From assembly GCA_964016885.1 (NCBI GenBank), contig OZ024743.1:13640001-13704000 (forward strand): a stretch of 64,000 nucleotides of DNA, read 5' to 3'. This DNA is from Eledone cirrhosa. Its lineage: Eukaryota. The notes below the pieces were generated by a model that was given only the letters and a program-made list of their open reading frames with translations, was not told the DNA's origin and ran no database searches. Both the position numbers and the translations under genes were made by a program. Positions 4,835 to 11,930 of this stretch are shown piece after piece (position 1 is the stretch's first letter; each line of letters begins with the position of its first letter).

Positions 4835-5743
4835 GCTATAAGTGATAATGCGCAACATATGCTGAGACTACAGCCTCTTCAGATATTAGTAAATGTTGAA
4901 AACATCTAGTCACCGTATATGAGACATCCGTTCCGCATCTCGTCTCTTTGACAGAGCTGCTGCCATGATTCAATCAAAGACAAAGACTGGGCGCCTGGCA
5001 TCTGGATAATTGTCCTGGGCTCCATGTCTCTACCAGTTTGCAAAGGCGGTCAATGAAATTCCACTCTAGAGTTCTAGAAAGGAATTGCCGTGGGCAGGTT
5101 AGAACATCGAAGCCAGGACCTATGATCAACTTCCAGAATTCCCTTGCTGGACAGTTCTCCATGCACTCGTCTAGTGTCTGTGCATTACTGGCTTGTGGAA
5201 TTTTTTCGAACAGCTATTATTGCCTCTAGAGCAGATCCAGCTATCGACCATGCCCATTGTGAAAATCACCCTTCCACCTACATTTGGTCAGGAAAGGTAT
5301 GCAGTTTTCGTCTGCCCGGTTGAGAGGTGGACGTTGCTGAAACGAATGAAGACAAACACTTTTATATTCGGCCAAGCTCCCATCAACTTTTTCAACTTCA
5401 ACTTGGAAAGAAAGGGGAAGATGGAGTGGGAAATGATACACCTCAGTTAATTTGTTAAAAGGTGTGCAAATGTAGCGAGGATCACCCGTGTGATAAGCCT
5501 ATTCAGACTGTACACTTCTAGGCCGGCTAGTGAGGAGAGCAAAGGGACACGCTTCTAGGGTGTTCTTGGTGAGTATGTTAGTTTAGGATTAGTGGGATTC
5601 CTAAGGCGGCCTTGGGTGGTACTGCCATTACTGAGGAATGTTATTGCTATACAGGTTTTACTCCATTTTTATGTAAACCCCTACCGTCGCAGCTTTTTGT
5701 ATTGTCCCCTATATGTCGGCCCTTGTGGCCAATAAATGAAATC
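4835..5743 (+). mobile_element. Old, decayed 5'-truncated Tx1-like element (relative of the adjacent intact copy)
   Basis: HMLRLQPLQ, PHLVSLTEL, PGPMINFQNSLAGQ and EQIQLSTMPIVKITLPPTFGQERYAVFVC align by eye to the C-terminus of ORF2 8137-11556. Ends GGCCCTTGTGGCCAATAAATGAAATC followed by ATTATT. Confidence 0.85.
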
Positions 5744-5764
5744 ATTATTTGTTGTAATAGTAGT

Positions 5765-5794
5765 ATTATTATTATTATTATTATTATTATTATT
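5765..5794. repeat. (ATT)n tract at the 5' junction of Tx1-A
   Basis: Ten ATT units immediately before GAATGCC. Confidence 0.95.
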
Positions 5795-6007
5795 GAATGC
5801 CATGGTTGACGGAGGCTCGGCTCTGTAAGGTATAGTAATTTTTAACCGTTGGAACAATTGTAAATTGTTTAAAACTTGAACCAAATTGTTGATAAAGACA
5901 CCCTCCTCCTCGTGAGAGGGGTCTTTCTGTCCGTTATTTGGCCCTTCGGGGTTGAATAACCAGTTGTTGGGGTTTTGTACCCAAAATTTCATTTTAAACA
6001 AAAAAAC

Positions 6008-11100: not shown

Positions 11101-11556
11101 GATAAACTCTACAGGCATGGAGGTGCCGTCAGCCGGGCATGTCCGAGATGCGCGCAGGGCGACGAAACCGTCCTGCACGCACTCGTCCAGTGTCCGAAAA
11201 TTGCTGACTTGTGGGTTTATGTCGAACACCTGCTGTCGCGTTTAGGACGGATCCAGCTATCATCTGAGTCTATCGTGAGGATTGCCCCGCCCTCCTCCTT
11301 TAGCCGGGAAGGGCAGGCAGTTTTTATCTGTCTGGTGGCCATGGCGAAAGAGATAGTATGGTGGACACGTTTGAAAGGGCTGAAGACGAGCACTTACCTC
11401 TTCGGTGATGCTCTGATTGACTTTTTCAAATTTCATTTGAAAAGGAAAATCAGAGTAGAGAAGGAAGTGCTCTCTTCCCAGCATTTTGTTGAAAGATGGG
11501 TGAGAGAAGCAAGAATGGCCCGAGTGAATGGGCCGACTCTGAGTATATATCTGTAA
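8137..11556 (+). CDS. Tx1-A ORF2: AP endonuclease, reverse transcriptase and C-terminal Cys/His zinc finger
   Basis: APE motifs SINARGL, ISET, VYAP, GDWN, SYLDR, TDH. RT motifs KSPGLDG, FRPITLLN, DQSKAFDRV, RQGCPLS, YADD. CPRC..ETVLHALVQC. 1139 aa uninterrupted. Confidence 0.97.
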   Translation: MTSLRIGSINARGLGSSWKQGHLLNDLRSLNIDVVAISETRISEARAFAPIFGGFDVYASPSRPGSGGGVAVLFRRGLDLAIRAIFLDPEGKLVVLDVTSGDGQAFRLVAVYAPTGAGRPDFFRRLETFLGTSRSLVLVGDWNGILDARWDCVGLADRGGGCKSLTNLLRRFELSDRYRLDFPNVPMWTWTNRIGSSRSYLDRVFCREIDRSSIGCPQFKIVSYTDHKFVICVLDLDRLHRRGPGYWKLNASLPARKAYRDRISELVKRALTGAIVNNKWWFALKRAIRIESIRFSKALAIEKNRAEGELVRKLDEALSKGIATDVLAAKLALDQFFNAKHEGCVVRARVRALRHEGTKAVQWARVAEARRGNKATIRSLVDHDGRMLLDPGQMCEAFQRHFAQLFGGSGGPGRGMDFSVYLDGLPRLSATEAKCCEKPITAAEVREAMTGCTRGKSPGLDGLPYELYVQMPDLFGGLLADVYCNWQQNGRIPSSVSRGAVALLRKDPNKGDNIDNFRPITLLNTEFKILAKVLAKRLALVVGGLVGEAQTCAIPDRSIHDNLHLMRYIVERVAREPGTGGSLINLDQSKAFDRVDHRYLAAVLRAAGFGPVFRGWIAAMHSDICSVVRVNGHLSEPFNIMRSVRQGCPLSSLLYVLTLEPLLHKLETLRGVPRELGCGRSVSAYADDVTVVVSNAKHIEAIGTTLREYEAVTGAMINQEKSVGLQLGTWRGRSMPSNSVVGRWTDGPVKLLGVWFGPDLQTDKNWDEVTSRVASLTQKWAERKLSLKGRAEVANAYIASVICYRLTVVPCPKPRLTALERLLFRFLWKGRAPMVRRSICCQHPLRGGLGMPWLMMRRHALRLRHLHLFLDGDQVWSPFARRVFPQLVSLTELQSWVKRRPRGSAWRLECLQALTALDQSGNVIGGSSTSAFYRGLVEGKSDDVLGETLGVDENQLANLFGRTFGPGPMDNFQKSLAWQCYRGALPVRDKLYRHGGAVSRACPRCAQGDETVLHALVQCPKIADLWVYVEHLLSRLGRIQLSSESIVRIAPPSSFSREGQAVFICLVAMAKEIVWWTRLKGLKTSTYLFGDALIDFFKFHLKRKIRVEKEVLSSQHFVERWVREARMARVNGPTLSIYL

Positions 11557-11819
11557 ACTAAAGGTGGAAAACTGGGAGAGGGCACTTGCCTTGGTGGTCA
11601 GGGTCATTGTGGCTTTTTACTGGGCTTTCTCCACAAATGTCCCTCCGAAGTCTCCCCCCTATTGGGGAATTTTTCATTGTTATTTTCATTGTTATTTTTG
11701 TTACATCCTCTGTTTTTGTTTTTTTTACACGCAGAAATGCCCATTTGTACCGTCCTGCATTGTCCTGCACTGTCCTTAATGTCTACTTTATGTAAACCCT
11801 TGTGGTTAATAAAGAAATC

Positions 11820-11930
11820 ATTATTATTATTATTATTATTATTATTATTATTATTATTATTATTATTATTATTATTATTATTATTAGTAGTAGTAGTAGT
11901 AGTAGTAGTAGTAGTAGTAGTAGTAGTAGT
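11820..11930. repeat. (ATT)n then (TAG)n tail/target at the Tx1-A 3' end
   Basis: Begins directly after GAAATC. Confidence 0.95.

Follow-up and report, generated by a model that had tools for sequence, protein, structure and literature searches.

When the same microsatellite stands on both sides of a retrotransposon, does the repeat belong to the element, or to the site in which the element landed? The question is raised by a long interspersed nuclear element (LINE) in a 64,000-nucleotide stretch of Eledone cirrhosa DNA (assembly GCA_964016885.1, contig OZ024743.1, positions 13,640,001 to 13,704,000, forward strand), hereafter the window, in whose numbering the positions below are given. This LINE encodes an apurinic/apyrimidinic-type (APE) endonuclease, and is bounded by (ATT)n. 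As argued below, it represents a young, high-copy family of the L1/Tx1 group, for which (ATT)n tracts already present in the genome are the likely preferred integration sites.

The body of the element (5795-11819; 6,025 base pairs, bp) starts with GAATGCCATGG and ends with AATAAAGAAATC, and there is no A-run or poly(A) at its 3' end. Tandem Repeats Finder reports a period-3 array ahead of it (5764-5794, 10.3 copies, 100% matches), and (ATT)22.3 behind it (11820-11886), directly followed by (TAG/AGT)15.7 at 11885-11931; by regular-expression search, the perfect ATT runs extend from 5765 to 5794 and from 11820 to 11885. A preliminary description of the same DNA had reported an intact LINE between (ATT)10 and a long (ATT)n, without poly(A) and with both open reading frames (ORFs) uninterrupted, and this anatomy is confirmed here. 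The parts of the element, with ORF positions in amino acids (aa) and nucleotides (nt), are the following:

5795 to 6007, plus strand: 5' untranslated region (UTR) of the intact LINE, starting GAATGCCATGGTTGACGG; the exact 31-mer occurs 1,564 times in the genome
6008 to 8101, plus strand: ORF1, 697 aa, open, with a low-complexity N-terminus and one CCHC knuckle (CFRCGSKTHLRAFC)
8137 to 11556, plus strand: ORF2, 1,139 aa, open, with APE endonuclease, reverse transcriptase (RT) and zf-RVT
ORF2 aa 22-210, nt 8200-8766, plus strand: APE endonuclease (Exo_endo_phos), Pfam E 5e-14
ORF2 aa 511-754, nt 9667-10398, plus strand: reverse transcriptase (RVT_1), Pfam E 1e-28
ORF2 aa 974-1026, nt 11056-11214, plus strand: zf-RVT, Pfam 33.4 bits against a cut-off of 27.5
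11557 to 11819, plus strand: 3' UTR, with AATAAA at 11808-11813 and the terminus GAAATC at 11814-11819; the exact 34-mer occurs 3,336 times in the genome
11820 to 11931, plus strand: 3' tail, (ATT)22 at 11820-11885, then (AGT)~16 to 11931, without poly(A)

For ORF1, Pfam gave no family at E 0.01 over the whole frame, and no relevant one at E 1 over aa 158-431. A CCHC zinc knuckle is a feature of type I ORF1p, a trait looked for in the Tx1 clade; here the CCHC string is visible in the translation, without a Pfam match behind it.

The junctions of this family were tabulated by exact-terminus searches of the 3.0-Gb assembly, for which reversed-pattern controls gave 0. The 34-base 3' terminus, present 3,336 times, is directly followed by ATTATT in 3,094 cases (92.7%). 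Ten of the exceptions were sampled: six show the ATT tail with a one-base change, in two the tail is ATT(ACT)n or ATT(CTT)n, another falls within the 3' UTR of a different copy, where the sequence is ATT-like, and the last has just one ATT unit. The 31-base 5' terminus, present 1,564 times, is preceded by (ATT)3 in constant phase in 1,529 cases (97.8%). At least five perfect ATT units were found at all 94 full-length 5' junctions inspected, namely 30/30 anchored on the 5' end (window copy included), 31/31 among the best-scoring 3'-anchored copies, and 33/33 in a positional sample; this last, unbiased sample consists of the first 60 places, in chromosome order, of a 40-mer list (the 41st place, L100, is not among the 60; retrieved loci are designated by L and a number). 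The 5' tract of full-length copies measures 5-27 units, with a median of about 8-9, and in the positional sample another Tx1-type tail lies ahead of only 10 of the 33 full-length copies. Chance is ruled out as the source of these flanks, since in the other 56.8 kb of the window ATTATTATT occurs just once per strand, and no (ATT)5 or (AAT)5 run is present. On both sides, a single sequence type thus accounts for more than 20% of the flanks, the measure of target specificity given in the available part of PMC4494074.

The copies are numerous and little diverged. The last 400 bp of the LINE yielded 507 candidates, the 40 scored being all 100% identical, and its first 306 bp yielded 824, the 40 scored being 99-100% identical. 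From the 40 top-scoring 3' ends, each retrieved with 7 kb (the best-scoring set), 31 proved to be full length; their identity to the window copy is 96.7-99.9%, and both ORFs are kept at full length in 26 of them. The family is young and high-copy, and probably active.

A flanking repeat could also arise without any choice of target. Integration would then not be directed by sequence, the 3' (ATT)n being a templated tail and the 5' (ATT)n a part of the element, supplied for example by transcription starting in an upstream repeat. Copies truncated at different points on their 5' side bear on this explanation. The best-scoring set holds 9 apparent truncations, from which L070 was left out as mosaic, and the positional sample holds 18, from which L119 was left out as rearranged; 9 further copies of the positional sample belong to a mosaic subfamily (see below), are not truncations, and were left out as well. 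Among the 25 usable truncated copies, 14 carry ATT repeats at the 5' junction, in varying phase, one carries (CTT)n, and 10 carry neither. ATT-type repeats are found in 7 of the 8 copies from the best-scoring set (none in L065), and in 7 of the 17 from the positional sample (L103, L104, L107, L110, L117, L120 and L140). That 14 of 25 differently cut copies retain ATT, where the background is about 2 in 100,000 positions, is not expected if the repeat were a fixed part of the element. The preference for ATT at truncated junctions is far above background but not strict, because 10 of the 25 have neither ATT nor a target-site duplication.

The genome-wide tabulation of flanks proposed in the preliminary description therefore finds 5' (ATT)n at most copies (1,529/1,564 by exact search, 94/94 inspected full-length junctions, 14/25 truncated ones), and the suggestion made there, of a potentially active (ATT)n-specific APE retrotransposon, gains support from the flank counts, the APE domain, and the ORFs kept in 26 of 31 copies. 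The outcome named there as its refutation, a lack of (ATT)n at the 5' junction in most other copies and above all in truncated ones, did not occur.

More direct information comes from target-site duplications that include non-ATT variants, found in seven copies (L062, L066, L081, L084, L091, L095 and L096). The duplicated sequence is ATTATTGTTACCA in L062, ATTATTGTTGTTGTCGTT in L066, ATTATTATTG in L081, ATC(ATT)n in L084, (ATT)3TTT(ATT)n in L091 and ATTATTATTCCCTT(ATT)14 in L096. Such variant-bearing duplications indicate that the ATT repeat was in the target before insertion, and argue against a repeat carried along by the element. In L062 and L066, the duplicated target stands directly after GAAATC, so that what looks like a tail is target DNA, with no extra tail added; the only ATT units behind the terminus are those of the target, again at odds with a carried repeat, and the first-strand break would lie directly left of ATTATT. 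L066, L076 and L081 lie on three chromosomes and differ in their point of truncation; all of them sit within paralogous copies of a degenerate ATT/GTT tail of another LINE, and the flanks of L066 and L081 each reveal the unoccupied site of the other.

Several observations weigh against insertion into existing tracts. The full-length 5' junction always has a single phase (ATT|GAATGCC), which also fits an element-carried repeat, as does the fairly narrow range of the 5' tract. In the positional sample, 9 of the 17 truncated copies lack ATT at the 5' junction (L102, L105, L118, L126, L131, L132, L134, L138 and L157), and L111 has (CTT)n there. No target-site duplication was found in any of the 11 truncated copies without 5' ATT, L111 and L065 included; a lone 8-base match 65 bases into the flank of L134 was discounted. 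The duplications of L091, L095 and L096 span the whole spacer ahead of an older copy, and need unusual staggers of ~24-56 bp. Only 7 of ~100 copies are informative, because tail and target are indistinguishable in pure ATT flanks. Finally, a BLAST search with both flanks of every copy, taken separately, against all retrieved loci found no true empty allele; it gave paralogous contexts only, many of the seemingly unique upstream flanks being variably 5'-truncated copies of a LINE on the minus strand (described below).

All the truncated copies without 5' ATT have a 3' ATT run followed by one of the usual neighbours of the tract, and their 5' junctions may be secondary, resulting from later insertions. 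In at least four cases among L105, L131, L132, L134 and L138, the copy and the opposite-strand LINE meet at their truncated 5' ends, 5' to 5', with no repeat in between. Such abutments could come from later insertions, or from one break, both ends of which were primed by two different element RNAs. Considering the 10 truncated copies without a repeat and the constant phase on the one hand, and the differently cut copies and variant duplications on the other, I consider a repeat carried by an indifferent element improbable, and insertion into existing (ATT)n remains the preferred explanation.

The sequences that share these tracts point the same way. Behind the 3' tail, the 5' end of another copy was found at 7 of 30 loci, 9 of 60 in the positional sample and 7 of 40 in the best-scoring set. 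The other common neighbours at this position are the 5' end of the mosaic subfamily, the head of a tRNA-like short interspersed nuclear element (SINE), and the reverse-complemented 3' end of the opposite-strand LINE.

The mosaic subfamily is the same in kind as the ATT LINE from element position 2259 onward (ORF2 and 3' end), and has a different 5' part of ~2.1 kb, which starts GGCGACCTACGTAG. It includes L070, L106, L116, L121-L123, L135, L136, L154 and L160, makes up 9 of the 60 loci of the positional sample, and has ATT runs ahead of its 5' end in 8 of 10 copies. The sequence GGCGACCTACGTAG... had also been considered as the reverse 3' end of a Dong-like element; this was rejected, as it is the 5' end of this mosaic sister subfamily. 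In run X2, whose contigs come without starts, ends or strand, the contig depth over ORF2 was several times that over ORF1, which fits an ORF2 common to the mosaic subfamily.

The SINE (~185 bp) has a tRNA-like head (…GAGTTCAAATCCC…) and an (ATT)n tail, and its 5' end also stands right after (ATT)n. It occurs downstream of the tail in L014, L024 and L029, and in the 5' flanks of L034, L068, L079, L139 and L144. Its last ~22 bases, CCTTGTGCCTAAAGTAGAAACA(ATT)n, resemble the LINE terminus CCTTGTGGTTAATAAAGAAATC(ATT)n, and judging from this resemblance the SINE is likely a non-autonomous partner of the LINE.

At its 3' end, the minus-strand LINE reads as the reverse complement of CCTTGAATCTCAGTCATTGATG, behind which its own strand carries an (AAT)n tail; its copies are cut short on the 5' side at many points, and every such truncated end borders on (ATT)n. 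It is found in L024 and L029 (1,500 bp downstream of the tail), and in the upstream flanks of L123, L129 and L152. Its last ORF contains a CCHC motif and then a D..D motif, which I take to be of the restriction-like kind; Pfam gave only a sub-threshold zf-RVT match for the domains of this element, and PDB nothing. The start or the end of several unrelated elements thus coincides with the same repeat, and a shared target fits this better than a repeat carried by each of them; that the 5' ends of the SINE and of the mosaic subfamily likewise start after (ATT)n counts against a carried repeat in particular. (CTT)n often stands directly ahead of (ATT)n (L042, L045, L068, L075 and L111), which hints at a second trinucleotide-tailed family.

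Some copies form head-to-tail arrays of 3-5 full-length elements (C1:55423672-55449642; C1:278834448-278846867; C1:56169672-56181803), with periods of ~6,045-6,069 bp or of 6,908-6,918 bp, the 5' flank being duplicated in the second kind. This raises another explanation, namely that the association with ATT arose after the event: ATT-rich regions poor in recombination would have gained stacks and repeat flanks mainly through unequal crossing-over or segmental duplication, or would have retained copies selectively. L142 and L143, whose 80-base 5' flanks are identical and which follow the 6,908-6,918-bp period, do support this for some arrays: as the 5' flank is duplicated too, they reflect segmental duplication and not insertion, a further point against the preferred explanation there. 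The regular 6,045-6,069-bp spacing of several arrays would also agree with it. However, the flanks differ among most inspected copies, neighbours in stacks differ in age (a 99.6% copy beside an 88-96% copy, for example), and copies that are 99-100% mutually identical are too young for retention to have sorted 98% of them. As a general account, an association formed after insertion is therefore very improbable.

From the anatomy, copy numbers, flank statistics, target-site duplications and open ORFs, I infer the following path for insertion into an existing (ATT)n tract. The ORF2 protein would nick the bottom strand just 3' of AATAAT, and the freed DNA end, ending in AAT, would pair with the (AUU)n behind the conserved ...AAUAAAGAAAUC terminus of the RNA. 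Reverse transcription would be primed at this paired AAT end. Priming by (AUU)n pairing would explain why the GAAATC|ATT junction is fixed and why poly(A) is absent. A staggered cut of the top strand would then duplicate ATT units, leaving (ATT)5-27 ahead of the new 5' end. Each insertion would in this way rebuild two ATT tracts, so that the tails of older copies, of the partner SINE and of other elements would become new landing sites, and head-to-tail stacks would grow.

The source of the (AUU)n is suggested by the position of the AATAAA, 6 bases before the end of the LINE. Cleavage and polyadenylation take place some 10-30 bases past this signal. The transcript would therefore be cut and polyadenylated inside the downstream repeat, and the (AUU)n would come from read-through into that repeat ahead of the poly(A) site.

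Within such a scheme, the specificity could lie in the endonuclease, or in the pairing between RNA tail and target. The basis of target specificity in APE-type LINEs is called poorly understood in the consulted part of a 2013 review (PMC3812793), and the window itself offers a natural contrast between these two sources, in the form of a sister lineage with a (TATC)n tail. Relatives of this lineage lie at 53307-58214, 58462-59109 and 60112-63995, with 66-69% aa identity in ORF2 (tblastn), and are placed between (ATCT)n arrays (copies at 53307-58457, 58458-59412 and 60112-63995). The copy closing at ~58431 ends with AATAAAGAAATC, as the intact LINE does, and that closing at ~59376 with AATAAAAGAAAC; both are then followed by (TATC)n. 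Nearby (52074-52647) there are 2.2 repeats of a 260-bp unit, in which (ATCT)n is joined to the initial 70 bases of a truncated copy.

A sister with the same terminus, a (TATC)n tail and an (ATCT)n location is what would be expected if specificity came from RNA-tail pairing only, the endonuclease cutting AT-rich DNA loosely and only the nicks that expose AAT being extended. The insertion of L062 at a site with just ATTATT would agree with this. The endonuclease domains of the two lineages are 60-62% identical and their RT domains 76-77%, a divergence that appears to fit either view of which part sets the target, and so does not separate pairing from a sequence-specific endonuclease. I regard specificity by pairing only as possible rather than probable.

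A broader proposal, which I make tentatively and consider rather doubtful, is that the RNA itself programs the target: the microsatellite co-transcribed behind the fixed AAAGAAAUC terminus would pair with the nicked target, and the element would make its own landing sites. If so, sisters differing only in (AUU)n or (UAUC)n would home to (ATT)n or (ATCT)n, respectively, and a lineage could switch target by one landing in a new repeat. Together with the making of landing sites, this would explain how a site-specific LINE reaches thousands of copies.

The landing site of the window copy can be followed back to an older element directly upstream:

4905 to 5743, plus strand: old LINE relic, 5'-truncated and frame-broken, comprising the ORF2 C-terminus and 3' UTR, and ending AATAAATGAAATC
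5744 to 5794, plus strand: tail of the relic, the landing site, made of ATTATT, decayed ATT-phase triplets and a perfect (ATT)10 at 5765-5794

The decayed triplets after the ATTATT of the relic read TGT TGT AAT AGT AGT, and the (ATT)10 abuts the 5' end of the intact LINE. In a DNA alignment, the relic (~4905-5743) is ~65-70% identical to the ORF2 C-terminus and 3' UTR of the intact LINE, with deletions; by tblastn, it matches ORF2 aa 885-979 at 34% and aa 1011-1130 at 47% identity, in two frames. Elsewhere in the genome, its best matches extend over more than 250 bases with an identity of 75% at most. Since the protein identity is 34-47% and the nearest genomic matches do not exceed 75%, the relic is, on sequence grounds, a different and much older related LINE lineage, and not a decayed copy of the intact element's own family. 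The preliminary description had spoken of insertion into the tail of the element's own decayed relative; an old, broken, same-orientation, 5'-truncated relative is indeed found upstream, whereas its assignment to the same family does not hold.

The composite (ATT)n(AGT)n tail of the window copy (11885-11931) recurs in the 3' flanks of L158 and L175, that is at three loci. This hints that downstream sequence may travel with the transcript, by read-through from a source copy; an independent change of ATT to AGT followed by expansion could give the same picture. Other repeats lie in the upstream part of the window (2423-2891 and 4150-4700), in the form of (TTC)43 and 300 bp of degenerate (TCA)n, and the window holds an ORF fragment of another retroelement, broken by a G17 run at 4363-4379.

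To place the ATT LINE among known elements, ORF2 was compared with other proteins. Its closest solved homologue is human L1 ORF2p (E 3.5e-52, aa 5-854, covering endonuclease and RT), while R2 proteins match at E 1e-21, over the RT only. With a predicted N-terminal APE, RT and C-terminal zf-RVT, the element is a member of the L1 group (L1 and Tx1 clades); Tx1 serves here as a label, as the comparison resolves the L1 group only and the protein matches carry no clade names. The closest named protein, with 74% identity over the RT, comes from the octopod Argonauta hians and is annotated as hypothetical. Membership of the Dong/R4 clade was rejected, as R4 elements need a C-terminal restriction-like endonuclease and no APE, and an N-terminal APE is present here; in the part of PMC4640811 consulted, R4 is grouped with the restriction-like-endonuclease clades.

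LINEs that seek out repeats are known. The microsatellite-targeting elements named in the consulted part of PMC3812793 are Waldo (ACAY)n, Mino (AC)n, Kibi (TC)n, Koshi (TTC)n and Dong (TAA)n, and PMC4494074 describes, in its available part, crocodilian Tx1 families in (TTCC)n and (TTTC)n. For Octopus vulgaris, 13 recently active L1-Tx1 families are listed, with no mention of targets in the portion of PMC13282606 at hand. Full-text searches of the literature returned no APE-type LINE described as (ATT)n- or (TAA)n-specific; Repbase, Dfam or the target figure of PMC4494074 may list one. (ATT)n appears to be a new target for LINEs of the L1/Tx1 type.

Among microsatellite-specific APE-type LINEs, the ATT LINE is also remarkable for being young, for its copy number, and for renewing its own target. 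As a rule, site-specific LINEs reside at low copy number in ribosomal DNA or small-RNA genes. For the ATT LINE, the counts are at least 3,336 termini and 1,564 full-length 5' ends, and most of the sampled copies are intact; its landings are nonetheless confined almost entirely to one microsatellite, which it regenerates itself. Much of the (ATT)n landscape of this genome would be explained by this LINE together with the SINE that shares its terminus and the opposite-strand LINE (presumably restriction-like).

The nearest parallels are Kibi and Koshi of teleosts and the crocodilian Tx1 families, which, as far as PMC4494074 and PMC3812793 were available, are likewise APE-type elements with two ORFs and the same microsatellite on both sides, with the target repeat in place of poly(A) as tail, and with well over 20% of flanks of one type. 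The ATT LINE differs from these in its AT-only (ATT)n target, listed for no APE-type element in the same parts of the two papers, and in its far higher copy number. Waldo (ACAY)n and Mino (AC)n, of the R1 clade, are also APE-type and insert in microsatellites, but belong to another clade and use other repeat units (PMC3812793, consulted in part, the distinction being drawn by description alone). Dong uses the same duplex microsatellite, according to the part of that review consulted (PMC3812793), and the minus-strand LINE, with its (AAT)n tail and variable 5' truncation, occupies the same tracts as the ATT LINE. Unlike Dong, which has a C-terminal restriction-like endonuclease, the ATT LINE has an N-terminal APE, and it carries ATT on its sense strand, the strand opposite to that of a TAA-tailed element. 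With human L1 it shares the order of domains and, if the proposed path is right, the pairing of the nicked target strand with the RNA tail, which in L1 takes place between a T-run of the target and the poly(A) of the RNA. It departs from L1 in having an (ATT)n tail and no poly(A), a putative CCHC knuckle in ORF1, and defined microsatellite flanks in place of loose TT|AAAA-like sites.

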